Origin: Candidatus Saccharicenans sp.
GTDB taxonomy: Bacteria; Acidobacteriota; Aminicenantia; Aminicenantales; Saccharicenantaceae
Direction: 5' to 3'
Length of the DNA stretch: 64,000 bases
NCBI GenBank assembly: GCA_030017715.1
Contig: JASEIU010000004.1
Coordinates: forward strand, 139,456-203,455
The stretch's first letter is position 1; every line of letters starts with the position of its first letter. The notes under the pieces were generated by a model, which saw only the letters and a program-made list of their open reading frames with translations, ran no database searches and was not told the DNA's origin. Positions 10,901 through 62,057 of this stretch are shown in pieces. Position numbers and translations under genes: made by a program.

Positions 10901-11326
10901 CCCGGGGTGGTCTGGGCTTCCTGCTATCGGCTGGGGCTGGCCAGCGCTTTCGGGGAAGTCCTGATTCCCGGCAAGCGCTTCTACGCCGGCGGCGGCACCA
11001 GCATCCGCGGTTTCAGACTCGACGCCGTCGGCCCGGTCGATATCTGGACCGGCTTGCCTGAGGGCGGTGAGGCCATGCTGGTCACCAATCAGGAGTTGAG
11101 ATTTCCAATCTATAAAATTTTCAGGGGCGTGATTTTCCTTGACGCCGGCAACGTCTATTCCCGGCTATCTGATTTCAACCCGGGACGCTTGAGGACCGGG
11201 GCCGGGTTCGGCTTGAGGATTGACAGTCCGCTCGGCCTGGTCAGAATCGACTACGGCTTCAATCTCAAGCCGCGCTTGGACGAACCAAAAAGCACTCTTT
11301 TTATCAGTATCGGCCAGGCGTTTTAG
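4991..11326 (+). CDS. giant outer-membrane biogenesis protein: TamB-like (AsmA/DUF490) N-terminal ~1370 aa fused to a POTRA + Omp85 (TamA/BamA-like) C-terminal barrel
   Basis: This is a single 2111-aa ORF. It has an N-terminal signal-anchor helix (ILLGLVLILIFSGLFL). Long beta-rich repeats end in the TamB C-terminal DUF490-type signature (..SGTPSDLKFSLTSVPSRSQEDLASLLLTGKSL.. at about nt 8670-8760). POTRA-like repeats follow (..FYRKQGYLNARIEDEV.., ..YFYQENGYLSPKIE..). The C-terminus carries an Omp85 barrel (RFYAGGGTSIRGF, GVIFLDAGNV, GAGFGLRIDSPLGLVRIDYGFNL) with a terminal aromatic (..SIGQAF). Confidence 0.8.
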   Translation: MMKKDDNTPKRKKRKFIRTAVRILLGLVLILIFSGLFLQTPWGGKLVLRKAGNILREKMGLSLQADSLKLNIFRLKAALSGLKISPAGKSILPVEFISADRIIFQTGWSTITGGQLRIKDLEIINPIVKLKSGQPGPEDRQPTPAPPTPETGAAGISFRIDHFRLERGAFSFEKPATPLSMKLIGLEASVQFDEDSHFHLASLEGKSGSLLFGRGQAEITGLEVKAAFNPDTIRLDRISLAADNAALNIHGTVENYLENPELNLKTDGRLALSELAAMIWPGQKLGGQLSWELGLTGTAARPEITGGLKIPDLEIYDLKPVDLSLDISPSREAAHLVKADVSYKWGRMHLAGTLPPGLKGNLEASLSLQRLDLRALQALLPDFPVELASEISGRLEFEARELSADAISGLAELKLEPTVRSGEAESRPAVPVSGDLSLSYSDETLKVNKLNLALLNSRLEVRGKLESLEIISGQLTWRLDDLKAIIQAIKSSGLPKMAVGLEQQLSTLDGLSGSVLLEARFSGQLNRPQFSLALDGQNLGYGQVGLPYLEIKADGNPEKINLRQLLVTLDHGRITAAGVFQELKASQGTVFRLDGRLDISDLDLSQFSGLLAEENRQYLNGLLSGKVNLAGTTARPGADFQLQVAGTEAGTLKLESLEISGEYSPDELSFNKIDLRLGQESQLQGRISFRPRSGDVRVELEGRKLKATLFQSWLPALTSGLLDLKLSAVGPWKNAVADLTITGQGFMIDRIWFPYFELKADSDGHLARARLNVPRFNLSLETGMELKEPHLLSGLIQVRDLPLSALAGLLPEVEETSPLVALSAVTRFSLPLSSPEKLEAEFKFENFDFAGLAVLMPSLESLKPGGRADGRLELKGFSSDLKGTELDLEIPSLNLRLGGNEIRNEGPLAIQLREGKLRVGSFILNSGRSRFSLGGGAELKDPKNPALDFTLKGDLDLSDFGSWLSGMQVGGKLQLQTVVRGDLEEPLIEGSGTMEEVFLRMQDLPLILSSASARFRVDNSQLVLDSLTGLANSGSFSGSGRAVFGQNFSLTSARIDFNLRDFDFNYPPGLSSLSEASLVLSKDRRGWALAGDLSILNASYRQDFYPSTQGLKMALSKVSPVGTEYPAFLYDLPLDINIRTIENIIIKNNLADLELKANLNLKGTIPAPILSGRAENAYSGELIIGERKYAVERLRVDFLGRENLEPNLDIFLKSTVYDLEEEVEVSLVMSGTPSDLKFSLTSVPSRSQEDLASLLLTGKSLRQVQGSALNTISGQLVQHFSSPLTSPVTRTLKKWLKAEDVILEPLNIATLQDPGARLTVRKRMTRDFAVTYSIDLTNSQYQTWILDYRLKRNFSTRAFRRDDGVVGLNLRHRLNFGQTAKSGGQAKIITKQLSRIEISGETIFSEEQLTGVVKLKPGRRYRTSAIRQARNRLEAFYRKQGYLNARIEDEVIEQDENNLDLKFYIQAGQPAGFKFTGDKLPARVRKKAINSWVGRLPEEANLYQLKAVLLNELNRRGYYKAEVNLVRKPEKGQVLYEVSTRLNGRWKVGSFKLSGDPVFREPVIRKIVSDYFGARARGLWNLVYDRKIALELIEYFYQENGYLSPKIEAPVIEENDRKRLLDLTLKIEAGPRSQVDSLEITGNSSFQTAELTRILNLQPGSVFSWPALNEDRTVLQNRYRSAGYKDVRVEIEARPAGEKADYEVKINIEEGPVYTISGIDVEGARRTRKSFVLKESGLKPGEPVSLEKLAQAQKNLYDATSFQAVNVSSEAESSPGHQEKVRVRVLEMPWLSLTYGLQYNTDTRFEGFTQFDFNNLFGRGWHSLLYFRANQRQQDARASLKIPYLFGRKLDSLLSLFYLKDIRDLYITEEIGASFQQKIMIVRGFDLSWVYRLSRIHDYEQEPSWPFPYDIRVTSSELSLLLSRDTRDDRFDPRHGSLLTGSLSYAPRYLGSDLNYVRSFTQFTMYRSVLPGVVWASCYRLGLASAFGEVLIPGKRFYAGGGTSIRGFRLDAVGPVDIWTGLPEGGEAMLVTNQELRFPIYKIFRGVIFLDAGNVYSRLSDFNPGRLRTGAGFGLRIDSPLGLVRIDYGFNLKPRLDEPKSTLFISIGQAF

Positions 11327-23917: not shown

Positions 23918-25633
23918 TTACTTTCTTATTATCTTCAGCAGCCTGTCAACGGTCAGAGTGTTAATCACATCTTTTCTGGTCAGCCAGGCCCGGCGGGCGA
24001 TTCCCAGCCCGAAGCGCATCATGGCGAACCCGTGGGCATAGTGGGTATCGGTGCCGATGGCGATCGGGACTCCTTTCTCCCGGGCCTTTTTCAGATTGTG
24101 TTCGTCAAGGTCCAGGCGGTCGTAATAGGCGTTCAGCTCAAGGAATTTTCCATATTGGGCCGCGGCCGCGATTACTTTATCGATATCCACTTCATAACCC
24201 TCACGGCCAGAGATAAGCCGACCGGTCGGATGCCCGATAACCTGCACCAGGGGGTTTTTAATTGCTGAAATGATTCGCTCGGTGACGTTTTTCTTAAAGC
24301 CGGAATGGATGGAAGCCACCACCAGGTCAAGCTTCCTGAGTAAACTTTCCGGAAAATCTATTGAGCCGTCAGCCAGGATGTCCGCTTCCGTTCCCTTGAG
24401 CAGGCGGAAGCCTTTCAATCTGGCATTGATTTTATCAATTTCTTTGATTTGCTCGGCCAGCCGCTCGGGAGTCAGGCCATGAGCGTATTTTGCCGACTGG
24501 GAATGGTCGCAGACGGCTATATAACTATAACCCATCTTTTTCCCATGTTCGACGATTTCTTCCAGAGTCAGCACTCCGTCGCTCCAGTTAGAATGCACGT
24601 GCAGGTCGCCCCTGATGTCTTTGAGCTCAATAATTTCCGGAAGCTTTCCCTCCAGAGCCAGCTCGATTTCGCCGCGGTCTTCACGCATCTCAGGTGGAAT
24701 AACCGGCAGGCCAAATACCTTATAAACTTCCTCCTCGGTTCGGCCGGCAATTTTTTTCTCGCCCTTAAAAACTCCGTATTCGGATATTTTTAAGCCTCTG
24801 TCTTTGGCCAGTCCGCGCAGTTTAATGTTATGAGCCTTTGAGCCGGTAAAATACTGCAGGGCCGCGCCGTAAGCATCCTCTTCTACGATTCTCAGGTCAA
24901 CCTGACGTTCTCCCATTTCTGTTTCTATTAGAATCGAGCCCTTGGTGTCGCCTTCGGCCAGAATATTGATGGTCCGGGGATGCTTGACGAAGTGCTTGAT
25001 GATTGCAGGCCCGTCTTTTCCCGTCGCCAGGATATCAATGTCCCCGACGGTCTCCTTCATCCGCCTCAGGGAACCGGCCGGGGAAATATGATTGATCCCC
25101 GGGGCTTCCTTCAGGTAGTCCATAACCTCTTCTGCTATAATCAGAGCGTCACATATGGACATTCTTTCATGGGCCTGTTCGGTCAGTTCTATTCCCTTTT
25201 TTATGTTTTCCACTTTCTTTTTGCCCATTCCATAAAGCTTTTCCAGGCTGCCGTCTTTGATAACCCGCTTCAGGTCATCCAGGTTTTTGACCTTCAATTC
25301 TTTGTTCATCAGGTGGATGGTCCGTCCACCCAGACCCGGAATTTCCAGGAGCTGCAGGAGACTCTCGGGCACATCCCTCATAACTTCTTCGTAGCGCTTG
25401 ATTCGGCCTGTTTTAAGATATTCTTCAATTTTTTCGGCCATGCCCTTACCGATACCGGGGATATCAGCCAGCTTGCCGGAAGCTACCAGCTCGGCCACAT
25501 CCTGAGTGAGATCTTCCAGAATCCGGGCCGCTCTTTGATAGGCTACAACCTTGAATCCGGTTTCACCTTTGATTTCCAGAGCGTCGGCGATACGATAGAA
25601 AAGGCTGGCTATTTCTTTATTTCTGTTTTCCAT
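23918..25633 (-). CDS. DNA polymerase X family protein with C-terminal PHP phosphoesterase domain
   Basis: The N-terminal Pol beta-like HhH region is FKVVAYQRAARILE..ADIPGIGKGMAEKI. The nucleotidyltransferase motif is GSLRRMKETVGDIDIL. The C-terminal PHP domain contains DLHVHSNWSDG. Confidence 0.9.
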   Translation of the reverse strand: MENRNKEIASLFYRIADALEIKGETGFKVVAYQRAARILEDLTQDVAELVASGKLADIPGIGKGMAEKIEEYLKTGRIKRYEEVMRDVPESLLQLLEIPGLGGRTIHLMNKELKVKNLDDLKRVIKDGSLEKLYGMGKKKVENIKKGIELTEQAHERMSICDALIIAEEVMDYLKEAPGINHISPAGSLRRMKETVGDIDILATGKDGPAIIKHFVKHPRTINILAEGDTKGSILIETEMGERQVDLRIVEEDAYGAALQYFTGSKAHNIKLRGLAKDRGLKISEYGVFKGEKKIAGRTEEEVYKVFGLPVIPPEMREDRGEIELALEGKLPEIIELKDIRGDLHVHSNWSDGVLTLEEIVEHGKKMGYSYIAVCDHSQSAKYAHGLTPERLAEQIKEIDKINARLKGFRLLKGTEADILADGSIDFPESLLRKLDLVVASIHSGFKKNVTERIISAIKNPLVQVIGHPTGRLISGREGYEVDIDKVIAAAAQYGKFLELNAYYDRLDLDEHNLKKAREKGVPIAIGTDTHYAHGFAMMRFGLGIARRAWLTRKDVINTLTVDRLLKIIRK

Positions 25634-28207: not shown

Positions 28208-28429
28208 ATGTCAAACGAAAAAACAAAAATAGCCAAAAACACCAAGAAGCTGCGGAAGCAACGGGATTTGTCGCACGAAAAGTTATCCAAACTTGCCGAT
28301 ATTTCACATAATATGATAATCAAAATTGAGTCCGGGGCGATTCAAAGCCCGACAATAGAAACAGCCCAAAAAATCGCCAGGGCGTTAGGGGTTACTTTGG
28401 ACGATTTAATGAAAGAAAATCATGACTAA
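28208..28429 (+). CDS. XRE-family helix-turn-helix transcriptional regulator (putative R-M controller, C-protein-like)
   Basis: The 73-aa product has a classic HTH (LRKQRDLSHEKLSKLADISHNMIIKIESGAIQSPTIETAQKIARALGV). Its stop overlaps the methyltransferase ATG by 8 nt. ORF 28190 begins at an upstream TTG; ATG 28208 is preferred. Confidence 0.8.
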   Translation: MSNEKTKIAKNTKKLRKQRDLSHEKLSKLADISHNMIIKIESGAIQSPTIETAQKIARALGVTLDDLMKENHD

Positions 28430-30905
28430 AGAACAAAAGTTTTACAAGGCATTACAGGATGTATTCATCGGCGCCAGGATTGAAGGCGAAGGCGGTTTTG
28501 TCAATTTGATGAGGATTAAATCAAGTTACTACCGTCAAATTGAAGATATTCTTAAAAAAGATATTGAAACCGCACTAAGTAGCTACCCGGCATTCAGGGA
28601 CGAACTTTTTGACAAGCTCTATTCATTTTTCAGCCGTTACTTTACGGAAAGCGGATCAATATATTTCAACCAAACGCCTTTTCATAATAATATTTATGAA
28701 AAAATTTATACCGATGAAAAGGATGTTATTCTCTTTTGGAAAACGCAGATGCTCTACTATGTCAAAACCGACCGGATTTTTAAGAGTTTGCCGGTTGAGT
28801 TTGACGGTTTCAAAATTTACTTTGACGCTTCAAAAATAGAAAACAAAAAAGCCAATGAAAAACGCTCGCTTGTTTTTGAGCTGAATGATGTCAAGGAAGA
28901 CGGCACGATTGTTTTCGGTGTTTTATATTCTGAAAAAGGGACAAAAACAAACCAAGACGAGATATTAAAAGCAATAAAGAGAAAAGGCATTGCCATTACC
29001 GAAGACCAATTGGAGCGTGCCTTTAGGGTTTTTGAAAAGCAAAGCGAGGTTGATTTCTTTATTAACAAAAATGCTAAAGCATTTTTGCAGGAACAGTTTA
29101 AGCTCTGGAGTTATCAGTATTTCTGGGAAGGGGCCAAAGAATGGAGTGCAGATAGAGTTAATCAACTGCAAAATCTCAAAAACATTGCTTTTAAGATTAT
29201 TGATTTTATCTCGCAATTTGAAGACGAACTGGTAAAAATCTGGAACAAGCCGAAGTTTGTAAAAAACTCAAATTATGTGATTACGCTGGATAGAATAATA
29301 AGTCAAATCTCAGAAGGCAAAAATCAACACTTGGAATTGATTGAGAAAATTTTTAACCATCCTAATATAAATGAGCAAATAAGGGAATGGGAAGAACTTG
29401 GGATAATAGAAGAAAAGTCAATAGTTAAAAATAAATTTTCAAAATTCAGAGGGAAAGAATTAAAGTTGATAGATGAGATATTTGAAAACACACTGGAAGG
29501 CAAGAGACTTAAAAAAGAATACGTACACCTGCCAATTGATACTAAGTATTTCAAGGATTTGGAGTTTCAGATACTGAGCCAGTTTAATGATTTGGATAAG
29601 TCATTAGACGGCTGGCTGATAAAAAGCGAAAACTACCAAGCGCTAAATACAATCCTTCCAAAATTCAAAGAAAAAGTGCAGACAATTTATATTGATCCGC
29701 CATTTAATTTAGATTCTTCTGACCAGTTTTTATATCGCACAAATTACAAAGACGCTAACTGGGCAACTTTGCTTGAAAACAGATTAAGAATTGCGAAAGA
29801 TTGGCTGAATGAAAAAGGAAGCATTTTTGTAAGGTGCGATTCAAACGGAAATTGGATAGTAAGGTTTTTAATGAACGATGTTTTTGATAACAATTTAAAG
29901 AATGAAATTGCTGTTAAAAGAACCCGCACATTGAAAGGGGAGAGAGGGCGTTTTCATACAGCGTGGGAATCTCTTTATTTCTACGCAAAATCAGAAAACG
30001 CAATTTTTAATGGTTTTAGGAAATTGAAACCAGAAAGCGAATGGCAATGGGTAGAAATGCACTTACCTGGGACTAGAAAAGACGAAGATTTACTTTATAG
30101 AAACTTTTTTGGAAAAAGACTAAAAGCACCGGAAGGACGAAGATGGGCATTAAGTCAGGATGCCTTGGATGATGCTATTTCAAAGGGATTGGTTAAAATG
30201 GATGAACAAACTGGAATGCCCAAATTCCTTACAAAATGGGAAACGCTCGGTTCTAACTGGACAGATATTTCTGGATATTCCCCAGCGCATGGTTTTACAA
30301 CAGAAAATTCAGAAGAATTATTACAGAGGGCAATAGAATCTACTTCTAATAAAAATAGTTTGGTTCTTGACTTCTTCCTTGGCTCTGGCACAACAACAGC
30401 CGTAGCTCATAAACTTGGTAGAAAATGGATTGGCGTTGAGATGGGAGAGCATTTCTATAGTGTAGTTTTGACGAGAATGAAAAAGGTCTTGGCTTATGAT
30501 AAAAGCGGGATTTCAAAAGAAGTCAAAGAATATCAAGGCGGCGGGTTTTTCAAGTATTATGAGCTGGAGCAATACGAGGAGGCGCTGGCAAATTGTAAAT
30601 ATGAAGATGGTGATTTATTCAATGCGCCCGGCAGAAGTCCGTACCAGGAATATGTCTTTATGAAAGATGAAAAAATGCTCAAGGCGTTGGAGATTGATTA
30701 TAAAAAAGGGAAAGTCAAAATTGATTTATCAAAACTCTATCCGAACATAGACATTGCCGAAACATTGTCTAACCTGACAGGAAAATGGATTAGACAAATC
30801 AAAAGTCAAAACTTAAAAATCAAAAGTGTGGTGTTTGAGGATGGCAACGAAATTGATATTGAAAACCTTGATTATAGACTAATTAAGCCATTGATTTGGT
30901 GGTAG
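28422..30905 (+). CDS. beta-class N6-adenine/N4-cytosine DNA methyltransferase (Type III Mod-like) with ~420-aa uncharacterised N-terminal extension
   Basis: Motif IV TIYIDPPFN (aa ~425) precedes motif I LVLDFFLGSGTTTAVAHKLGRKWIGVEM (aa ~650). A ~220-aa putative TRD lies between them. This order (IV before I) is diagnostic of beta-class amino-MTases such as Type III Mod. Confidence 0.85.
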   Translation: MTKEQKFYKALQDVFIGARIEGEGGFVNLMRIKSSYYRQIEDILKKDIETALSSYPAFRDELFDKLYSFFSRYFTESGSIYFNQTPFHNNIYEKIYTDEKDVILFWKTQMLYYVKTDRIFKSLPVEFDGFKIYFDASKIENKKANEKRSLVFELNDVKEDGTIVFGVLYSEKGTKTNQDEILKAIKRKGIAITEDQLERAFRVFEKQSEVDFFINKNAKAFLQEQFKLWSYQYFWEGAKEWSADRVNQLQNLKNIAFKIIDFISQFEDELVKIWNKPKFVKNSNYVITLDRIISQISEGKNQHLELIEKIFNHPNINEQIREWEELGIIEEKSIVKNKFSKFRGKELKLIDEIFENTLEGKRLKKEYVHLPIDTKYFKDLEFQILSQFNDLDKSLDGWLIKSENYQALNTILPKFKEKVQTIYIDPPFNLDSSDQFLYRTNYKDANWATLLENRLRIAKDWLNEKGSIFVRCDSNGNWIVRFLMNDVFDNNLKNEIAVKRTRTLKGERGRFHTAWESLYFYAKSENAIFNGFRKLKPESEWQWVEMHLPGTRKDEDLLYRNFFGKRLKAPEGRRWALSQDALDDAISKGLVKMDEQTGMPKFLTKWETLGSNWTDISGYSPAHGFTTENSEELLQRAIESTSNKNSLVLDFFLGSGTTTAVAHKLGRKWIGVEMGEHFYSVVLTRMKKVLAYDKSGISKEVKEYQGGGFFKYYELEQYEEALANCKYEDGDLFNAPGRSPYQEYVFMKDEKMLKALEIDYKKGKVKIDLSKLYPNIDIAETLSNLTGKWIRQIKSQNLKIKSVVFEDGNEIDIENLDYRLIKPLIWW

Positions 30906-32404
30906 GTATGGTAAAATTTAATCTATATAAAATTTATCCCGGTCAGCGAGAAAAACTTATAGAGAAGCTTAATTCTGTGGGGCTTACTAAGATAGGCAGT
31001 AAGAATATAGACGGTTTTTCTCTAGATTTTTATTTTTCAGACGAACCCGACTCCATTGATATTTGGTGGACTGATATTTATAAGGAATTTTTCGGAGAAG
31101 TAGAGAAGCCAAAAAACAAAATTTACTTCGCAACCCTACTTGTATATAATACCCAAATTGTTTATGCGGTTAGTCTTGGCAAGTCACATTTTTATTTAAA
31201 ACACTTTTGCGATGGTGATTTCGGGCTTAATTTAGCGGAAAGAATCGCCGACGAGATAAATCCAAAAATGAAAAATTCAAAGTTTTACAAAAGCCGTAAA
31301 AACAAGATTATTACAACCTATCAGGAAGGTAGCGGAATTGATTTTGATAGCGGAGAATCACTCCATTATTTGCGAGCTAAAACGATCGATAAAGACAATT
31401 GGGGTAAAACTGCAAGTTTTGGACATTCAGCTCAATTTAGTATTGAGATTAAACCCGAAGATCTACCAGATTTTATAAAAAAGATTGAAGAAACTCTAAA
31501 ACAAAAATCACGAATAAAATTGCCAAAGGTAATAGTTGCGCGGGATGAAGAAACGAAAAATAAACTTGATAATTTACTCGCCAGGGTTTTAATGGGATCG
31601 TCCCAATCATTTACGGTGCAAGAAAGTGATATTACCCTATCGGGTGTAGATTTTATATTTTCTGACCAATATGAATATAGCTTTTATTTGAGGGGAGATC
31701 GCGATTCTCAGACTGATAAGGGAGAACTTACATTAGATCGGCTGAGGCGGTTTATTTCAGAAAAAAATATCAATCTAGAAACACAACTTAACGATGTGAA
31801 AGTAAAAGTCCACAATGAGTTTGGCAGAGATTTTTCTGTTTCGCTTAAGGAGACGTTGGACTTTATAGACGAAAAAGAACGATATTGTCTTATTGACGGT
31901 AAGTGGTATCAATTTAACCAATCATATTTGGATTTCTTAAAAGAGGAAGTTGATAGTATTGATTTTAAGGAGCAGGAGGAAATCGGCGATAAGACAGAGC
32001 AGGAATTCAACCAAAGAAAAGGCCGAGAAGGATTTGTTAATTGTGATAGATTAAATGAATCTTTGTGCAAAAAGTATAAGGTGGAAAAGGTAGATTTGTA
32101 TAAAGAAAAGATACTCCACTTTGTTAAATTTGGATCTCCGAAAAATATGAACTATGCTGTGGATCAAGCAATCAACACAGTTAAGCTATTGCAAAATAAC
32201 CAAAGCAAGATTCAAATCAATGACGAAGAACAAGGCGTTGAAACGATTTGTTTGTGGCTTGTTTTTGACAGAAAACAGAAACTTAACAAACTTTCAGAAT
32301 TAAACTCATTGATATTTCATATGAAATTAGCCGATTGGAAACGAATAGTGCAAAATGCCAGATATAAACCAATGATTTATGTAAGTTATAGAAAAAATGT
32401 CTAA
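30896..32404 (+). CDS. uncharacterised 502-aa protein embedded between mod-like and res-like genes (no recognisable catalytic motif)
   Basis: The start overlaps the mod stop (TTG at 30896 or ATG at 30908 after ggtggtagg). The stop overlaps the res-like ATG (32397) by 8 nt. Composition is AT-rich like its neighbours. No P-loop, HxH or clear nuclease motif was seen; LWLVFDRK near the C-terminus is only weakly (D/E)xK-like. Confidence 0.7.
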   Translation: MVVGMVKFNLYKIYPGQREKLIEKLNSVGLTKIGSKNIDGFSLDFYFSDEPDSIDIWWTDIYKEFFGEVEKPKNKIYFATLLVYNTQIVYAVSLGKSHFYLKHFCDGDFGLNLAERIADEINPKMKNSKFYKSRKNKIITTYQEGSGIDFDSGESLHYLRAKTIDKDNWGKTASFGHSAQFSIEIKPEDLPDFIKKIEETLKQKSRIKLPKVIVARDEETKNKLDNLLARVLMGSSQSFTVQESDITLSGVDFIFSDQYEYSFYLRGDRDSQTDKGELTLDRLRRFISEKNINLETQLNDVKVKVHNEFGRDFSVSLKETLDFIDEKERYCLIDGKWYQFNQSYLDFLKEEVDSIDFKEQEEIGDKTEQEFNQRKGREGFVNCDRLNESLCKKYKVEKVDLYKEKILHFVKFGSPKNMNYAVDQAINTVKLLQNNQSKIQINDEEQGVETICLWLVFDRKQKLNKLSELNSLIFHMKLADWKRIVQNARYKPMIYVSYRKNV

Positions 32405-35342
32405 ACTTTATTTACAAAACATCATAGATGATATTTCCTTTGAAAACTTGCCGGTCAAGTGGCAGGGGTTTGATTTTAGCCGATTTTCAAAAGACAAGAC
32501 ACTTTTTGATTTTCAAAAGAAAGGTTTGCAAAACGCGTTGAAAACATTGCATCTGTATTTTAAGGATAAAAACGGAGATAAAAAAGCATTATTTGATCAC
32601 TACAAATTTAATGGCCTGGAAGAAGATTTTGATTATGATTTAAAGAAAAAACAAGATAGCAAGATTGCAAAATATCTGTTGGAATACGATAAAGATTACC
32701 CAGTCATCGATAAAAAAATTTCCTTTGTTCATTTTATTAACCGGATGAGTTTTTGGATGGCCACTGGTTCGGGTAAAACGCTGATTATAGTTAAGCTGAT
32801 TGAGCTTTTGGGTAAGCTGATTGCCGAAAAAGAGTTGCCGGCGCGCGATATTCTCTTTTTAGCCCACCGCGATGATCTTTTGGACCAGTTCAAAAACCAT
32901 GTTGAAGAATTTAATAGCTTTAACTTTGACAGAAAGATAAACCTTAAAAGTCTGCGGGATTACGAAAACGTTAAGCGCGATAATCCTTTGCCGTTTACCA
33001 AAAATGGGATTAATGTTTTTTATTACCGTTCCGACTTGATTTCCGATGAACAGAAAGAAAAAATCGTTAACTTTCAAAACTATGACAACAGCGGGCGGTG
33101 GTATATCCTTTTAGACGAAGCCCATAAGGGCGATAAAGAAGACAGCAAACGACAAATTTTATACTCCATACTTTCAAGAAACGGATTTTTGTTTAATTTT
33201 TCTGCGACATTTACCGACCCAAGGGATTTTGCGACCTGCGCTTTTAACTTCAATCTTTCAAGGTTTGTAGAAGAAGGTTACGGCAAGCATATTTATGTGT
33301 CTTCGGCCGAGATCAGCGGATTTCGCGGCCGAGGCGCTTTTTCTTCCATTGAAAAACAGAAAATCGTTTTAAAAACACTTTTGCTTTTGACCTACATCAA
33401 TAAATATTTTGAAGAAATCAGAAAGCTTAATAATTCCCTATATCACCGCCCGCTTCTTTTAACTCTCGTTAATTCCGTGGATGTGGAAGAATCCGACCTG
33501 GAGTTATTTTTTAGGGAATTAGAAAAGGTAGCGAGAAATGAAATTAGAGCGGATTCGCTTAAAATAGCAAAAGACGAACTTATCCAAGAATTTCGCCATA
33601 ACCCCAAATTCGTATTTGAAGAGTTGGAGTGCCCCATAGACGGTAATTTGGTTTCAAAATTAGATTATCAGGATATTTTGAAATATATTTTAAATGCAAA
33701 CAGGCCTGGTAAGATTGAAGTTTTGAAAATCCCCGGGAATAGGCAAGAATTGATTTTCAGGTTAATGACGTCTCATAGACCGTTTGCGTTAATTAAGATT
33801 GGCGATATTTCCAGCTGGTTGAAGAACAAACTTGAAGGATATGAGATAAATGAAAGTTTTGAGAACGAAAGCTATTTTAAGGCCATCAATTGCGATGATT
33901 CCGACCTAAATATTTTAATGGGCTCTCGCTCCTTTTACGAGGGTTGGGATTCTAACCGACCAAACCTGCTTTTGTTTGTGAATATCGGAGTTGGAAGCGA
34001 CGCAAAGAAATTCGTTCTGCAATCGGTGGGCAGAGGTGTGAGAATAGAGCCGCAAAAAAACATGAGGAAACGGTTACAAAATTTGTACAATGCTGGGATT
34101 ATAAAGGATCAGTTATTTGAGAAAGTGAAAGATTTGATTTTGCCGATTGAGAGCTTGTTTGTTTTTGGCACAAATGCTGAAAACCTGAAGGAAATAATTG
34201 CAACGCTGAAAGCAGAGAAGCAAGATGAAAATTTAGGCGACGCCTTTATTTTGAATCCGGAAGCGCAAAGACATATTCTTTTGGTGCCAGTTTATAAAAC
34301 GGCCGAGAGAATATTTGCCGAAGAACAAGTCCCGCAAAAATACGCTATCAGCCTCGAAGATTTTGAGTTGACTTCTAGATTTTATGAATTTTTAGGAGAC
34401 AAAATAATTTTGGCTAAATATGATTGTGAAGTAAATGTTTTGAAGAAGGCAAAAGATAGTTTTGAAGAAAAAGGAAGATATTATGATTTCAGCGAAAAGA
34501 ACTCTCTTTTTGATCCCGAGCTGATTCTTGGACGCATTTTTGATTATCTTGGAGTTAAAAGCAGGGAATTTGAGAAGTTTAAGAAGTTGGAAAACGAGAT
34601 CGTGCATTTCAGAAAGATTAGATTCAGCGCCATCGAAAAATACGAGGAAATAAAAAAGAAAATAGAAGTAATGAAAGAGTATCCTGAAAAGAAAAAGGAA
34701 TTAAAAGCTAAATATGGAAAGATTCCAGAAGAAGAATATAACAAGCAGTTAAAACTGTTTGAAGAAGCAGGAAAGTACGAAGTAAAAAATCAAAAAATAA
34801 AAATCAAGTATTTGGCTAATCATTACTATCTTCCGGTGATAATTTCAGAGACAGAAAAAATTGACTATCTTAATCATATTATCAATGTTGAGAGCGAAAT
34901 AAAATTTATTGAGGAGCTGGAAGAATATCTTGCCAGGTCCAAAAATGTATTTACGCAATTTGACTGGTGGATGTTTTCAAAACTTGACCAAACGCTGGAT
35001 GAAGTTTTTATTCCTTATTACAATCCGAAAGAAAACAAGATGGCCAATTTCAAGCCGGACTTCATTTTTTGGATGCAAAAAGACAATCGCTATTTAATTT
35101 TATTTGTTGATCCCAAAGGAACCGAACACGCGGATGGATATAGAAAGATTGACGGCTATTCAAGGATATTTGAAATTGAAAAAAATGGACAAAGGCAAAA
35201 TAGAGATTTTTCATACGGTAGATTTACAATAAATGCAAAATTATTGCTCAAGCCCGCGAAAGGTGGTATTGACAGGGTTCCAGAACCTCAAAGGAAATAC
35301 TGGTTTGACAACTTTGATGATTTTGCGGGCAAAATCAGTTAA
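32397..35342 (+). CDS. SF2 helicase-nuclease (Type III Res-like restriction subunit)
   Basis: Helicase motifs are I (FWMATGSGKT, aa ~120), II (ILLDEAHKG, aa ~250), III (FSATF) and VI (LQSVGRGVRIEP, aa ~545). The C-terminal PD-(D/E)xK-like endonuclease motif is FKPDFIFW..LILFVDPKGTEH (aa ~885-908). The domain order (helicase N, nuclease C) matches Type III Res. Confidence 0.85.
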   Translation: MSKLYLQNIIDDISFENLPVKWQGFDFSRFSKDKTLFDFQKKGLQNALKTLHLYFKDKNGDKKALFDHYKFNGLEEDFDYDLKKKQDSKIAKYLLEYDKDYPVIDKKISFVHFINRMSFWMATGSGKTLIIVKLIELLGKLIAEKELPARDILFLAHRDDLLDQFKNHVEEFNSFNFDRKINLKSLRDYENVKRDNPLPFTKNGINVFYYRSDLISDEQKEKIVNFQNYDNSGRWYILLDEAHKGDKEDSKRQILYSILSRNGFLFNFSATFTDPRDFATCAFNFNLSRFVEEGYGKHIYVSSAEISGFRGRGAFSSIEKQKIVLKTLLLLTYINKYFEEIRKLNNSLYHRPLLLTLVNSVDVEESDLELFFRELEKVARNEIRADSLKIAKDELIQEFRHNPKFVFEELECPIDGNLVSKLDYQDILKYILNANRPGKIEVLKIPGNRQELIFRLMTSHRPFALIKIGDISSWLKNKLEGYEINESFENESYFKAINCDDSDLNILMGSRSFYEGWDSNRPNLLLFVNIGVGSDAKKFVLQSVGRGVRIEPQKNMRKRLQNLYNAGIIKDQLFEKVKDLILPIESLFVFGTNAENLKEIIATLKAEKQDENLGDAFILNPEAQRHILLVPVYKTAERIFAEEQVPQKYAISLEDFELTSRFYEFLGDKIILAKYDCEVNVLKKAKDSFEEKGRYYDFSEKNSLFDPELILGRIFDYLGVKSREFEKFKKLENEIVHFRKIRFSAIEKYEEIKKKIEVMKEYPEKKKELKAKYGKIPEEEYNKQLKLFEEAGKYEVKNQKIKIKYLANHYYLPVIISETEKIDYLNHIINVESEIKFIEELEEYLARSKNVFTQFDWWMFSKLDQTLDEVFIPYYNPKENKMANFKPDFIFWMQKDNRYLILFVDPKGTEHADGYRKIDGYSRIFEIEKNGQRQNRDFSYGRFTINAKLLLKPAKGGIDRVPEPQRKYWFDNFDDFAGKIS

Positions 35343-48706: not shown

Positions 48707-48779
48707 GCCAGCGTAGCTCAGCCGGTAGAGCAGCTGATTTGTAATCAGCGGGTCGGGGGTTCGAATCCCTTCGCTGGCT
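48707..48779 (+). tRNA. tRNA-Thr (anticodon TGT)
   Basis: A 73-nt cloverleaf was folded by hand. The acceptor is GCCAGCG/CGCTGGC, the D-arm GCTCAGCCGGTAGAGC, the anticodon stem GCTGA/TCAGC with loop TTTGTAA, and the T-loop TTCGAAT. Confidence 0.85.
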
Positions 48780-48822
48780 CAGAAATAGAAAGCAGGCCTG
48801 GCCTGATAGGGAAGACCGGTAT

Positions 48823-48905
48823 GGGCAGGTACCAAAGTGGCCAAATGGGGCGGGCTGTAAACCCGCTGCGGAAACGCTTCGGAGGTTCGAATCCTTCCCT
48901 GCCCA
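48823..48905 (+). tRNA. tRNA-Tyr (anticodon GTA), class II with long variable arm
   Basis: An 83-nt fold. The acceptor is GGGCAGG/CCTGCCC, the anticodon stem GCGGG/CCCGC with loop CTGTAAA, the long variable arm CTGCGGAAACGCTTC, and the T-loop TTCGAAT. Confidence 0.85.
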
Positions 48906-48913
48906 TTTTTGAT

Positions 48914-48986
<73 letters not shown>

Positions 48987-49005
48987 TTCTAAGAACTGAA
49001 GTTAA

Positions 49006-49078
49006 GCCCAAGTAGCTCAGTTGGCAGAGCACGTCCTTGGTAAGGACGGGGTCACCAGTTCAAATCTGGTCTTGGGCT
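49006..49078 (+). tRNA. tRNA-Thr (anticodon GGT)
   Basis: A 73-nt fold. The acceptor is GCCCAAG/CTTGGGC, the anticodon stem CGTCC/GGACG with loop TTGGTAA, and the T-loop TTCAAAT. Confidence 0.85.
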
Positions 49079-49117
49079 TTTATAAAAAATTTGCCTGGCT
49101 CCTAGGAGGTAAAAGAG

Positions 49118-50320
49118 ATGGCCAAGGAAAAATTTGCGAGGACGAAGCCGCACGTTAACATAGGGACGATCGGGCACATTGATCACGGGAAGACGACGTT
49201 GACTGCGGCGATCACCAAGGTGTTATCGACGAAGGGGTTGGCGCAGTTCAAGCCCTACGATGAGGTGGCGAAGGCGGACGCCAAGATGTTTCGTCGGGAC
49301 GCGACGAAGATCCTGACGGTGGCTCTGTCGCACGTGGAGTACGAGTCGGAGAAGAGGCACTATGCGCACATAGACTGTCCGGGGCACGTGGATTACATCA
49401 AGAACATGATCAGCGGGGCGGCGCAGATGGACGGTTCGATTCTGGTGGTGGCGGCTGATGATGGGCCGATGCCGCAGACGAGGGAACACATCTTGCTGGC
49501 TCGTCAGGTGGATGTTCCGGCGATCGTGGTTTTTATCAACAAGGTGGACCTGGTAGATGATCCTGAGATACTGGACCTGGTGGAGTTAGAGGTCAGGGAG
49601 CTGTTGAGCAAGTATGAATTTCCTGGAGACAAGACGCCGGTGATACGGGGCAGCGCGACCAGGGCGATGGCCGATCCTGAGGGAGAGGGTGGCAAGCCGA
49701 TCTGGGAGTTGATGAAGGCGCTGGACGAGTTCATACCGGAGCCGGTGCGGGAGATAGACAAGCCGTTTTTGATGAGCATAGAGGATGTTTTTTCGATAAC
49801 TGGCCGTGGGACGGTGGTAACGGGCAGAGTGGAGCGGGGGATAGTCAAGGTAGGTGATGAGGTGGAGATAGTAGGCTTTGGGGAGACGAAGAAGACGGTG
49901 GTGACCGGGGTGGAGATGTTCCGGAAGATTCTGGACCAGGGGCAGGCGGGAGACAACGTAGGTTGTTTGCTGCGTGGCATAGGAAAGGACGAGGTGGAGA
50001 GGGGGCAGGTTCTGGCCAAGCCCGGTTCGATCACGCCGCACAAGAAGTTTCGGGCGCAGATATACGCTTTGACCAAGGATGAGGGCGGGCGGCACACGCC
50101 GTTTTTCACTGGTTACCGGCCGCAGTTTTATTTTCGGACGACCGACGTGACCGGGACGGTTAAGTTACCGGCGGGGGTGGAGATGGTGATGCCCGGGGAC
50201 AATGCCAACGTGGAGGTGGAGCTGATCACCACGGTGGCCATGGAGAAAGGCCTGAGGTTTGCCATCCGCGAGGGCGGCCGGACGGTGGGCGCCGGAACCG
50301 TCACCGAAATTTTGGAATAG
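49118..50320 (+). CDS. tuf: elongation factor Tu
   Basis: The N-terminus is [37 protein letters not shown] and NKVD motifs are present. The RBS is aggaggt. Confidence 0.98.
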
Positions 50321-50370
50321 AACTTCAGCCGCCGACTTCTGGTTGAATTCAGTGATAAGGAAATAGCGAG

Positions 50371-50520
50371 ATGCGGGAAATAATTACTCTCCAGTGCTCG
50401 GATTGCAAGCGTCGCAATTACAGCACCACCAGGAACAAGAAGAAGCAGACCGAACGGCTGGAAATAAAGAAATTTTGTCCGTTCTGCCGCAAGCATACAC
50501 TGCATAAAGAAGTTAAATAA
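50371..50520 (+). CDS. rpmG: 50S ribosomal protein L33
   Basis: This 49-aa ORF is below the ORF-track size cutoff. The product is [49 protein letters not shown] with the L33 zinc-ribbon CxxC..CxxC. It sits between tuf and tRNA-Trp, as in many bacteria. Confidence 0.85.
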
Positions 50521-50536
50521 TGACTGACCGGACTGA

Positions 50537-50613
50537 GGGTGAGTAGCTCAATTGGCTAGAGCAGCGGTCTCCAAAACCGCAGGCTGCGGGTTCGAGTCCT
50601 GCCTCACCCGCCA
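50537..50613 (+). tRNA. tRNA-Trp (anticodon CCA), CCA encoded
   Basis: A 77-nt fold. The acceptor is GGGTGAG/CTCACCC, the anticodon stem GCGGT/ACCGC with loop CTCCAAA, the T-loop TTCGAGT, and a 3' GCCA. Confidence 0.85.
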
Positions 50614-53500: not shown

Positions 53501-53506
53501 CCTTGG

Positions 53507-53526
53507 TCAAAAAATTAATTTTTTGA
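53507..53526. promoter_or_regulatory. perfect 20-bp A/T palindrome TCAAAAAATTAATTTTTTGA between rplL and rpoB (candidate attenuator/partial terminator hairpin)
   Basis: Read directly: the 10-nt arms are exact reverse complements. It starts 6 nt after the rplL stop. The rplL-rpoB junction is a classical attenuation site. Confidence 0.3.
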
Positions 53527-53571
53527 TGATAGAAAACAAAAACTATCAAACTCTTTTTTTAGAGAGCTACC

Positions 53572-56500
53572 ATGCTTGATCAAAACCATCATATTTATCG
53601 GGAAAGAGTCGACTTTTCTAAAATCAAGACGGTTTTTGAATTGCCCGACCTGCTCGAAATTCAACGCAAGTCCTACGATGAGTTCCTGCAGATGGACCTT
53701 CTGCCTGAGGAGAGGAAGGAAGTAGGTCTCCAGGCCGCCTTCAAGGATGTCTTTCCCATAACCGATTTCAAGGAAACGACCGAGCTTCAATTTCTCAGTT
53801 ACACCATCGGTGACTGGGAATGCAAGTGCGGCCGTTTGAAGGGCGTGGAGAACTCCCGGCCGCGCTGCCTGTCCTGCGGGGCTCTGCTCCCGTCCGAGGT
53901 AGCTCTTCAAGAAAAGAAAATCTGTCCCTATTGCGGAGAGCATAAGAAGATCGAGATGCCGCTCTGCGATTACTGCGGAGACCGGGTCAGGCTGAAAATC
54001 AAATACAGCCCCCTGGAGTGCATCCAGAAAGGTTATACTTACGAGGCTCCGCTCAAGCTCAAGGTTCAGCTGGTTTCCTGGGAGAAGGACCCGGCCACCA
54101 AGACCCGGCGGCTGAAACATATCAAACAACAGGAAGTCTATTTCGGCAATATCCCGCTGATGACCGACAAGGGCACCTTTATATTTAATGGAGTGGAAAG
54201 GGTGGTGGTCAGCCAGCTGCAGCGTTCGCCCGGAGTGTTTTTCAGGCCGGGTGAAATCAAAGGCCAGTTCGTCGGCAAGGTCATTCCTTACCGCGGGGCC
54301 TGGGTGGAATTCGAAAACGACACCAAGAATATTCTGTGGGTCAGACTCGACCGCAAGAAGAAATTCCTGGCAACTGTATTTCTGCGGGCCCTCGGTTACG
54401 GTTCAGATGAGGAAATTATCAAGCTGTTCTTTAAATCTTATGAGTTGATTCCGGAAGACGGAAAACTCTACTGGAAGGTTACCGATAGCCTGGTCGGCAA
54501 AGTTCTGAGAGAAGATGTTTACAGCCCGGAAAGCTCCAGAGTCCCGGTAGTCAGAGCCGGCGCCAGGCTGGACCAGGAATTAATCAACAAACTGCTGGAA
54601 AAGAATGTTACCAGGATCAAGGCCAGCCGTCAGGACCTGCAAGGGGCCTGTTCCCTGGTTAATGTCCGGGGAAAGATCAAGGCCGGGGAAGAGCTGACCG
54701 CGGAACAGCTGGAAAACCTTACCACCAGAGGAGAGCCATTCGAGGTTTTCTTCCCGGCTGAAGATGAAGCCGCCCAGATGATTCTTAACACCCTGAAGAA
54801 GGACCTGAAGAAAGACCAGCAGCAGGCCCTGAGCGAAATTTACAAGAAGCTCAGGCCGGGAGAGCCGCACACCGCGGAAAGCGCCAGAGCTCTTTTCGAC
54901 AATATGTTTTTCAACCCCCAGAAGTTTAACTTCTCCCGGATTGGCCGCCTGAAGTTCAATATCAAGCTGGGACTGGAGAGCGGACAGCGAGATGTTCTGC
55001 TGGAAACCGAGAGGAAGTCAGGTCCGGAGGACCCGAAAGACCGCCTGCTGTCCAAAGAAGACTATGTTCAGGTTATAAAGTACCTGCTGAAGCTCAAGAA
55101 CGGCGAGGGTTCGGTGGACGACATCGACCACCTGGGCAACCGTCGGGTGCGCCCGGTGGGCGAGTTGATGGAAAACGCTTTCCGGATAGGCCTGACCCGG
55201 ATGGAGAGAACCATCAAGGAAAAGATGACCATCAGCGCCGACCTGTCCTCAGCCATGCCGCAGGACCTGATAAATTCCAAGCCGGTCATTGCTGCCCTGA
55301 AAGAGTTCTTCGGCAGCTCTCAGCTCTCGCAGTTTATGGACCAGATCAACACCCTGGCCGAATTGACCCATAAAAGAAGATTAAGCGCCCTCGGGCCCGG
55401 CGGCTTGAGCCGCGAAAGGGCCGGCTTTGAAGTCAGAGACATTCAGACCTCTCATTACGGGCGAATCTGCCCGATCGAAACTCCGGAAGGTCCCAACATC
55501 GGTTTAATCGCTTCTCTCAGCAGCTATGCCAGAATAAATGAATACGGTTTCATTGAAACTCCGTACCGCAAAGTGGAAAAAGGCCGGGTGGTCGACTATG
55601 TCCGGGTCATTCATCCCGGCGCTACCTCCTACCGTCCGGGGCAGCTGGTCCGCAAAGATGAGGTCGAAAAAGCCGTCAACCAGTTGCAGGATCAGAAAGC
55701 CAAAAATCTCCCGCTCTATGAACCATACATTTTTTATCTGACTGCCTGGGAGGAAGAAAATTATAAGATTGCTCAGGCCAACGTCGAAATCGACTCTCGC
55801 GGCTATATCAAGCAGGAAATGGTCAGCGCCCGCGACCGTGGTAATTTCAGGATCCTGCCGCGGGAAGAAATTGATTTCATGGATGTTTCTCCCAAGCAGC
55901 TGGTCTCCCTGTCAGCAGCCTTGATTCCCTTTCTGGAGCACGACGACGCCAACCGGGCGCTGATGGGTTCCAACATGCAGCGCCAGGCCGTGCCGCTGCT
56001 CAAGCCCGAAGCTCCGCTGATCGGAACCGGACTCGAACATATCGTGGCCAAAGGTTCCGGGGATGTGGTGGTCTGCGAGCGGTCGGGAGTGGTGGAGTTT
56101 GTCGATGCCGAAAGAATCATAGTCAGGGTTGACGAAAAGGAAAACAGCCTGTATGACCTGGGCACCGACCTTTATCTTCTGACCAAGTTCCTCAGAACCA
56201 ACCAGAACACCTGCATCAACCAGCGCCCCATAGTGAGAAAAGGAGACCGGGTGGTGAAGGGACAGATTCTGGCCGACGGTTCCTGCACCGACCGCGGCGA
56301 GATGGCTCTGGGCCGGAATATCCTCTGCGCCTTCATGCCCTGGCGGGGTTACAATTTCGAGGACGCCATCATCGTCAGCGAGAAACTGATTAAAGAGGAC
56401 GTCTTCACTTCCGTTCATATCGTGGAAGAAATGATTGAAGCCCGGGACACCAAACTCGGTCCCGAGGAAATTACCCGCGACATCCCCAACGTTTCGGAGA

Positions 56501-57908
56501 ATTTGCTTCGCAACCTCGATGAAACCGGTATCGTCAGAATCGGGGCCTATGTGAAACCCGGCGATATCCTGGTGGGCAAGGTGGCTCCCAAGGGAGAGAC
56601 CCAGCTCTCGCCCGAAGAAAAGCTGCTCAAAGCCATCTTCGGCGAGAAAGCCCTGGACGTCAAAGACGCCTCTCTATACTGCCCTCCGGGAGTGGAAGGC
56701 ACGGTGATAGATGTCCGGATCTTCACCCGGCGCGGCCAGGAAAAGAACGAGCGCGCCAAGATCATCGAAAAAGAAGAAATCGCCAAGCTGAAGCGGAACC
56801 TGGAAGATGAGATTGAAATCCTGGAAAAGGAAAAATGGCGGCGTATCAAGAACCTGATCAAGGGTCAGGTGGTCGGCAAGAATGCCAAACTCGGCGGGCG
56901 GACGATAGATAAGGGCACCAGGCTCACCGAAAAATTGCTGGAAATACTGGAATTTGATGACCTGAAGGACCTGGAAGAATTGAAACTCCCGGCCGATGCT
57001 GAAAGAGACGAGAAGATAAGAGACCTCGACCGAAAAGTTAAACGTCAGATTGACGCCCTGAAGGCTGAATTCAAAGAGAAAGTCGATACCCTGAAGAAGG
57101 GCGATGAGCTTTCCCCGGGTGTCATTCAGGCTATAAAAGTCTTCATCGCCATGAAGAGAAGGCTGTCGGTGGGCGACAAGATGTCGGGACGGCACGGCAA
57201 CAAGGGTGTTATCGCCAAGATAGTGCCGGAAGAGGACATGCCCCGCCTGCCCGACGGGACGCCGGTTGACATCGTGCTCAACCCCCTGGGCGTTCCTTCC
57301 CGTATGAACCTGGGCCAAATTCTGGAAACTCACGCTGGCTGGGCCGCCCGCAAAATGAATCTGTGGCTGTCCTCGCCCGTTTTTGACGGGGCCAAAGAAG
57401 AAGAGATCAAAGAACTGCTCAGGAAGGCCGGCTTGCCGGAATCGGGTAAAATCCGGCTGTATGACGGTTTGACCGGGCAGCCTTTCGACCAGGAAGTTAC
57501 AGTCGGCTACATCTACATGATGAAACTCTATCATCTGGTGGATGACAAGATTCATGCCCGCTCCACCGGACCATACTCGCTGATCACCCAGCAGCCCCTG
57601 GGCGGAAAAGCCCAGTTCGGCGGCCAGAGGTTCGGAGAGATGGAGGTCTGGGCTCTGGAAGCTTACGGCGCCGCTCATACCCTTCAGGAAATCCTGACAG
57701 TCAAGTCGGATGATGTTGAGGGCAGGGCCAAGATTTATGAAGCTATAGTCAAGGGGGACCTGGATTTTCAGCCCGGATTGCCAGAATCGGTAAACGTCCT
57801 GATCCGGGAACTCCAGGGGTTGTCCCTTAATATTGAATTGCTTAAAGGCGAGACAGAGGAAGCGTTGCCCTGGGGTATTTCCATACCTCAGTCAACCAAA
57901 GGAGATTA

Positions 57909-57909
<1 letters not shown>
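53572..57909 (+). CDS. rpoB: DNA-directed RNA polymerase subunit beta (1445 aa, with lineage-specific insertions including a double CxxC zinc-ribbon-like module near the N-terminus)
   Basis: Conserved blocks include [46 protein letters not shown] and [24 protein letters not shown]. Confidence 0.98.

Positions 57910-62057
<4,148 letters not shown>

Follow-up and report, generated by a model that had tools for sequence, protein, structure and literature searches.

A 64,000-nucleotide stretch of contig JASEIU010000004.1, referred to here as the window, contains the gene row rplA-rplJ-rplL-rpoB-rpoC, in which rpoB, the gene for the beta subunit of RNA polymerase (RNAP), was assigned from the list of open reading frames (ORFs), Pfam and an alignment with the E. 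coli protein. It occupies positions 53572 to 57909 of the plus strand, stop codon included, and encodes exactly the 1445 amino acids for which a preliminary description of this DNA had called the protein long overall. The complete set of Rpb2-type Pfam domains (Rpb2_1, 2, 3, 45, 6 and 7) and the position of the gene between rplL and rpoC identify the product as a bacterial RpoB, which is 55% identical to E. coli RpoB in a MAFFT alignment (E. coli sequence from the annotated chromosome). Residues 81-146 of this protein (53812 to 54009, plus strand) form a lineage-specific insertion that contains eight cysteines and is without counterpart in E. coli or in solved beta chains.

When all PDB sequences were searched with phmmer, every solved bacterial beta subunit aligned with the window protein as two pieces, query residues 10-81 and 144-298, and chain residues ~79 and ~83 were found to be adjacent where the query has the insertion. 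The MAFFT alignment placed 61 extra residues relative to E. coli RpoB at 82-147. The preliminary description had proposed an in-frame, eight-cysteine insertion of around 60 amino acids at 53815-54015; the peptide that it quoted is present, and its bounds are refined here to 53812-54009. The cysteines (C84, C86, C99, C102, C118, C121, C132 and C135) follow the spacing CxC-x12-CxxC-x15-CxxC-x10-CxxC. Three of the four CxxC pairs described previously are therefore of that form, while the first, C-K-C (C84, C86), is CxC. The 66 residues of the insertion hold as many cysteines as the remaining 1379 residues of the protein, eight in each case (binomial P = 5e-9).

The first predicted metal site, Zn1 (residues 82-103; 53815 to 53880, plus strand), reads W-E-C84-K-C86-G...C99-L-S-C102-G, includes a basic loop, and was delimited by BLASTP, hhalign and an AlphaFold2 (AF2) model. 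It is followed on the same strand by a largely acidic and variable linker (residues 104-117; 53881 to 53922), which showed the lowest model confidence and poor conservation, and by a second predicted metal site, Zn2 (residues 118-136; 53923 to 53979), which reads C118-P-Y-C121-G...C132-D-Y-C135-G and was recognized by Pfam. A return segment (residues 137-146; 53980 to 54009, plus strand), in which V139 and K144 were invariant in alignments, leads into the conserved beta1 block (..PLEC150..). Two zinc ions would be bound by this arrangement, one by residues 84/86/99/102 and the other by residues 118/121/132/135.

To examine the distribution of the insertion, we scanned one genome per GTDB species with patterns from the insert and its flank. 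At least 600 stretches matched, of which 591 were confirmed, so that the insertion is present in at least 591 species-representative genomes. The best match was a Candidatus Saccharicenans metagenome-assembled genome, approximately 96% identical to the window, and the window was assigned to Aminicenantia for this reason. Eighty loci were kept from the scan (60 Aminicenantes-type and 20 Vicinamibacterales/Acidobacteriota), and all 80 carried the insertion. Between Aminicenantia and Vicinamibacteria, insert length was unchanged at 45-47% identity (130 residues aligned), and in the alignment of the kept loci the eight cysteines and W82, K85, L89, G91 and R96 were invariant. A profile search of a 5.8-billion-protein collection returned 1331 matches; the best 120 were all N-terminal RpoB fragments of at most 300 amino acids, with names that included Acidiferrales, Bryobacteraceae, Sulfotelmatobacter, Terriglobales and Vicinamibacteria. 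Further look-ups found the insertion in Thermoanaerobaculia and in Pyrinomonadaceae (Blastocatellia). It was thus seen in sampled members of five Acidobacteriota classes, namely Aminicenantia, Vicinamibacteria, Terriglobia, Thermoanaerobaculia and Blastocatellia.

The module is 61-66 residues long in these proteins. Whether its cysteines are conserved among relatives had been left by the preliminary description as a point to be checked by alignment; all eight were kept in 116 of the 118 fragments that span the insert, in close and distant relatives. The second knuckle is CxxxxC in a Bryobacteraceae-type group. Six non-ligand residues (W82, K85, L89, G91, R96 and V139) were invariant or nearly so across the five classes, and the linker and much of Zn2 varied freely. 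Among singleton read-level assemblies (P0319, P0324, P0337, P0338, P0345 and others) we also observed sequences in which an internal deletion fuses a CxxCG knuckle with one further downstream; these are probably assembly artefacts between repeated knuckle motifs, and they may instead be real deletion variants.

The insert alone, run with HMMER against 1.84 billion representatives, gave 1223 matches at E <= 1e-3. All inspected matches that consisted of a single stretch were RpoB N-termini; those that consisted of multiple stretches mostly matched the second ribbon in the profile, a sign that they may be repetitive zinc-ribbon proteins. Relatives without the module were sought using Acidobacteriota N-termini with the insert removed, and the nearest insert-free relatives were labelled Myxococcales or Deltaproteobacteria. 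The earlier suggestion that the insertion is lineage-specific is supported. Some insert-bearing records are titled 'uncultured Eubacteriales', 'Candidatus Desulfaltia', 'Acidimicrobiia' or 'Planctomycetota' (loci L004, L010, L041 and L074; protein P0057). Spread to other phyla was considered and rejected, since these records carry near-Acidobacteriota sequences (P0057 is near-identical across the insert to the Vicinamibacteria-labelled P0059), which suggests mis-binning or placeholder names.

A Vicinamibacteria-like sub-lineage has 24 residues with a single cysteine, DPCGWGDEARGLVHEIGGQRMA, between IGNW and LKLKYD in place of the zinc module. A number of independent soil runs yielded this variant, as did a 58.9-kb contig (P0330, P0331, P0344, P0349, P0391, P0449 and P0450), and it is a natural loss variant. 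On this distribution and conservation, the insert is ancient and widespread across the classes, is under purifying selection, and has been lost on occasion. That the insertion is ancient, selectively maintained and present in the sampled members of five classes is well supported.

The preliminary description had called the insertion a putative double zinc ribbon. When the isolated insert was compared with Pfam, Zn_ribbon_3 (E = 5e-6), DZR (3e-5) and DZR_2 (1e-4) all fell just below their gathering scores. The whole insert reached 24.4 bits against the double zinc ribbon family DZR (E = 3.2e-5; residues 8-58 of 73 aligned), below the gathering score of 27.3, and is therefore not assigned to that family. 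In contrast, Zn2 scanned alone (residues 112-146) scored 28.9 against Zn_ribbon_3, where the gathering score is 27, and the Terriglobia form of Zn2 scored 30.2 against DUF7577, where it is 28; the Zn_ribbon_3 score falls to 20.6 within the full-length protein. For Zn1 (residues 77-109; four lineage versions), no Pfam zinc-ribbon family was matched, DZR included. Of the two halves, only Zn2 can therefore be placed in a zinc-ribbon family (Zn_ribbon_3, Zn_Ribbon_1 or DUF7577), and the earlier name holds for the second half and not for the first.

Judged by its sequence, Zn2 is a generic bacterial zinc ribbon, resembling Zn_ribbon_3 (PF13248), Zn_Ribbon_1 (PF13240), DZR (PF12773) and DUF7577. The module as a whole differs from such ribbons in that Zn1 has a CxC first knuckle and in that it is embedded in RpoB, whereas the generic ribbons are free or terminal domains. 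We considered an internal duplication of Zn1 and Zn2 and rejected it, as hhalign gave 34% over 8 columns.

Zn1 resembles another element of the same enzyme. In this organism, the zinc-binding domain of beta-prime, encoded by rpoC outside the insertion, comprises beta-prime residues 64-89 (58098 to 58175, plus strand; C69/C71/C84/C87; BLASTP) and corresponds to residues 67-91 of E. coli beta-prime. BLASTP aligned Zn1 with the organism's own beta-prime without gaps, at 10 of 26 identical residues. Residues 81-103 and beta-prime residues 66-88 have in common the CxC-x12-CxxC spacing, the residues [DN]-[WY]-E leading into the first cysteine, and a CG ending to the knuckles, and the shared spacing and lead-in hold in alignments of both families. 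Profile-profile comparison with the beta-prime domain (hhalign, one pair at a time) gave a probability of 91% when the entire insert was used and of 95% when Zn1 was used by itself, over 25-29 columns, compared with 52% for Zn2 and the same domain. In a control with 200 shuffles, in which the beta-prime cysteine columns were kept fixed, the hhalign score was 12.1 +/- 3.1 with a maximum of 23.2, versus 34.3 for the real comparison. When a 33-position Zn1 profile was searched against 177,635 distinct PDB sequences, cyanobacterial gamma and bacterial beta-prime zinc-binding domains came out on top, with 0.016 as the best E value. Such domains made up most of the 60 matches listed, always at E. 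coli residues 67-91, and the only other families among the 60 were ribosomal S27e, eL43 and PARP1.

In sequence pattern, then, Zn1 resembles the N-terminal zinc-binding domain of beta-prime (E. coli C70/C72/C85/C88; beta'-bD1, CATH 3.90.820.30), with the same Cys4 spacing, the same lead-in, a glycine after the knuckles and a basic loop. As far as can be told, this likeness is apparently a new observation. Each of the two is a short element inserted in a universal RNAP domain, and beta'-bD1 lies exposed on a pincer, as the module is predicted to, beta'-bD1 being a 27-residue, bacteria-specific inserted mini-domain (PMC11515920). Unlike beta'-bD1, the module lies on beta1 of the beta subunit, away from the RNA exit channel of beta-prime, and Zn1 precedes a second, unrelated zinc ribbon and has a different loop sequence; homology between the two is a candidate relationship.

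We modelled RpoB residues 1-230 with AF2 from a 105-sequence alignment. The mean predicted local distance difference test (pLDDT) score was 77, and successive ten-residue blocks of the insert gave 88, 83, 73, 65, 75, 87 and 86, that is, 83-88 in Zn1, 65-73 in the linker (the minimum of the insert) and 75-87 in Zn2. In the model, which has strands at 70-79, 140-142 and 158-172 and a helix at 147-153, the insert exits after the first of these strands and re-enters before the helix. Two Thermus structures matched the model best in Foldseek, both of the beta1 domain, bound to the Mfd RNAP-interacting domain (RID) in 3mlq and to CarD in 4xax, in agreement with the earlier placement in beta1; the template-modelling scores were only ~0.5 because the insert has no partner in Thermus beta1. 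The weak structural neighbours of the isolated insert were all zinc modules, rubredoxins and Rpb12/RpoP among them. Four antiparallel strands make up the beta1 sheet, and the Mfd RID pairs with strand 4 at its edge (Taq G106-E110; PMC3001067). This strand corresponds to approximately residues 182-186 (IKQ at 184-186) of the window RpoB, which places the exit of the insert at the opposite end of strand 3, probably tens of Angstroms away from where Mfd and CarD make contact.

Charge was distributed unevenly over the parts of the insert. Zn1 had a mean net charge of +3.65, and +3 or more in 105 of 116 sequences, across lineages. Mean charge was -1.5 in the linker and near +1 in Zn2. We considered a basic character for the insert as a whole and rejected it, as the net charge of the insert ranges from -5 to +5 and Zn1 alone is consistently positive.

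From these sequence features, residues 81-146 very probably constitute two Cys4 metal knuckles, most probably holding zinc, in a turn of beta1. The explanation that we consider most likely, with moderate confidence, is that they form a surface-exposed two-metal module on beta1 that adds an interaction surface. Such a module would be an autonomous element, exposed at the surface; the interaction function itself is proposed only tentatively. The metal ions would confer rigidity on a small module that otherwise has little structure and that lies on the outside of the beta pincer, and the conserved basic loop of Zn1, G-[RK]-L-[KR]-G-[LV]-x-x-x-R, could present an extra surface to a nucleic-acid backbone or a transcription factor. 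A parallel may be drawn with the beta-prime zinc-binding domain on the opposite pincer, an exit-channel module that binds nascent RNA and also docks the NusA S1 domain and put RNA (PMC8632103). By this analogy, a copy-like element on beta1 could plausibly act like the beta-prime domain, on the other pincer. The module would stand outside the catalytic machinery and could be lost, and the natural loss variant indicates that it is inessential for catalysis.

Several observations weigh against this explanation. The cysteines have been lost in the Vicinamibacteria-like sub-lineage, and the module is therefore dispensable. Over the entire insert, net charge is not conserved. The likeness of Zn1 to beta-prime is borderline at the database level, where the best E value in the PDB was that of 0.016, and could reflect convergence of short Cys4 knuckles. 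In addition, no beta-prime protein was found among the best 150 matches when the whole-insert profile was searched against 1.84 billion proteins.

The likeness could also have a more specific origin, in which Zn1 is a true paralogue of the beta-prime domain, an rpoC segment (or an ancestral copy of it) having been duplicated into rpoB beside a generic zinc ribbon. We regard this as possible but not probable. The ungapped alignment with identical spacing and common flanks is what such a duplication would leave; Zn1 is nearer to the beta-prime domain than to Zn2, beta-prime domains are the best PDB matches of its profile, and the shuffle control supports a likeness beyond the cysteines. The two genes adjoin, and the beta-prime domain is itself an inserted mini-domain of 27 residues (PMC11515920). 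On the other hand, the alignment extends over about 26-29 columns only, with the borderline database score noted above; the nucleotide identity of Zn1 with the rpoC segment in this genome (43/78) is uninformative, and short zinc knuckles converge easily. DZR, moreover, aligned across both halves of the insert, so that the module may instead descend from a double zinc ribbon whose first knuckle was modified. If paralogy were true, the enzyme would have gained a second zinc-binding domain, on the beta pincer.

An interaction surface need not be involved at all if the insertion is a neutral or structural decoration of a dispensable region, which folds independently and stabilizes the beta1 turn with no specific partner. 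Bacterial beta subunits contain many lineage-specific inserts (PMC11515920; PMC2939025), a Vicinamibacteria-like sub-lineage has exchanged the module for a stretch of 24 amino acids with one cysteine, and the linker and much of Zn2 are free to vary, all of which would be expected of a decoration. What makes this unlikely in our judgement is that six residues outside the metal ligands are almost unchanged across five classes and that the positive charge of Zn1 is conserved as well, a degree of conservation that exceeds the usual needs of fold maintenance.

It is very improbable that the module is a redox or iron sensor, in which the Cys4 sites would bind iron as in rubredoxin, or oxidation would free the zinc, and polymerase would thereby be coupled to the redox state. 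CxxCG knuckles are common to rubredoxins, which were also among the weak structural neighbours. However, the module is conserved in both Aminicenantia, which are reported to be anaerobic, and Terriglobia, which are known as aerobic soil bacteria; it lacks the aromatic core motif of rubredoxins and matched no rubredoxin family in Pfam, and its pattern is unlike that of a ferredoxin-type Fe-S cluster. An Fe-S cluster was rejected, as the cysteine spacing does not fit. An artefact of a single contig (frame error, mis-assembly, intein or mobile insertion), for which nothing more than the unusual composition speaks, can be dismissed, since the cysteine spacing and conservation are regular, the insertion is in frame and of equal length in hundreds of independent assemblies, closed chromosomes included, no intein motifs are present, and GC content is 0.57 in the insertion versus 0.54 in the rpoB gene; a frame error, already judged unlikely in the preliminary description, is thereby excluded.

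Lineage-specific inserts in bacterial beta subunits are a well-known phenomenon (PMC2939025; PMC11515920). A 2024 survey described five beta insertion sites, none of which lies in the N-terminal segment of beta-uD1, and assigned the lineage-specific beta inserts to the BEAN fold, with no mention of zinc or cysteine (PMC11515920). Opalka et al. cite Lane and Darst 2010, the source of the beta-i1 to beta-i12 nomenclature, for Acidobacteria only at beta-i4, i9 and i11 (PMC2939025). Keyword searching of the literature turned up no account of a zinc module in the RpoB of Acidobacteriota, although the Lane and Darst 2010 catalogue, which covers Acidobacteria, may list the position. Like beta-i4/SI1, beta-i9/SI2 and beta-i11 (BEAN/BBM2), the module is in frame, clade-specific and, by prediction, surface-exposed, follows phylogeny and can be lost. 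Unlike them, it is sited in the N-terminal segment of beta-uD1, and its predicted fold consists of cysteine-rich metal knuckles instead of BEAN/BBM2 or helical-ladder structures. It is therefore not a BEAN/BBM2 insert (CATH 3.90.105.10 at one of the five described sites) but a lineage-specific beta insert that differs in its site and in its predicted, metal-dependent fold.

Other RNAPs offer a looser comparison. In archaea and eukaryotes, zinc sites are carried by the second-largest subunits (the C-terminal Cys4 of Rpb2/RpoB) and by the small subunits Rpb12/RpoP and Rpb9, so that beta-like subunits and accessories can carry Cys4 ribbons, as proposed here. The Rpb2 site is in the C-terminal clamp region, whereas the present module is in the protrusion-like N-terminal domain, and no sequence relationship was detected between the module and the zinc sites of Rpb2, Rpb12, RpoP or Rpb9.

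The preliminary description had also pointed to further insertions in the usual dispensable regions of RpoB. The MAFFT alignment showed several further differences. A second insertion of 43 amino acids relative to E. coli beta (residues 676-718; window 55597-55725) follows E. coli residue 601 and separates the Pfam domains Rpb2_3 and Rpb2_45; beta-i9 has an extra 9 and 17 amino acids, and the C-terminus has a 19-residue tail. In contrast, beta-i11 of E. coli (residues 1123-1176) has no counterpart in the window protein.

The spacer between rplL and rpoB (53501-53571) is 71 nucleotides long and strongly AT-rich; in simple scans it showed neither a promoter-like nor a terminator-like site. Upstream of rplA-rplJ-rplL-rpoB-rpoC, positions 48707-50613 (plus strand) hold a tRNA cluster, Thr(TGT)-Tyr-Gly(TCC)-Thr(GGT), followed by a 400-residue ORF (49118-50320), which presumably occupies the usual position of tuf, and then by tRNA-Trp. 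Elsewhere in the window, a 2111-residue ORF (4991-11326, plus strand) has DUF748 and TamB domains, POTRA repeats and a C-terminal Omp85 barrel, and is a TamB-like and TamA/BamA-like protein in a single fused polypeptide. Three successive genes at 28422-35342 (plus strand), for an 827-residue N6/N4 DNA methylase, a 502-residue DUF6119 protein and a 981-residue ResIII/SNF2-type helicase, look like a restriction-modification or defence cassette. A 571-residue family X DNA polymerase with a PHP domain (HHH_8, DNA_pol_B_thumb and PHP) is encoded at 23918-25633 on the minus strand.

Acidobacteriota are among the most abundant bacteria of soils and sediments. To our knowledge, their transcription has been little studied, and no Acidobacteriota RNAP structure was among the solved PDB chains that we searched. 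We know of no solved bacterial polymerase that binds zinc other than through beta-prime, and a metal-binding module on beta would be unusual for this reason. If confirmed, the module would provide a clean sequence signature for the phylum, predict four zinc ions per core enzyme in place of two, and point to a specific surface for possible lineage-specific regulators or nucleic-acid contacts. One polymerase subunit would then have borrowed a mini-domain that otherwise belongs to its partner, and the natural loss variant would serve as a ready-made comparison. A further-reaching reading, which we think doubtful, is that the RNAP of Acidobacteriota carries a duplicated beta-prime-type domain on beta1, fused to a zinc ribbon, as a phylum-specific dock for nucleic acids or factors on the opposite pincer. 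Were this true, promoter DNA, nascent RNA or elongation factors would be handled in a distinct way in a major soil phylum.

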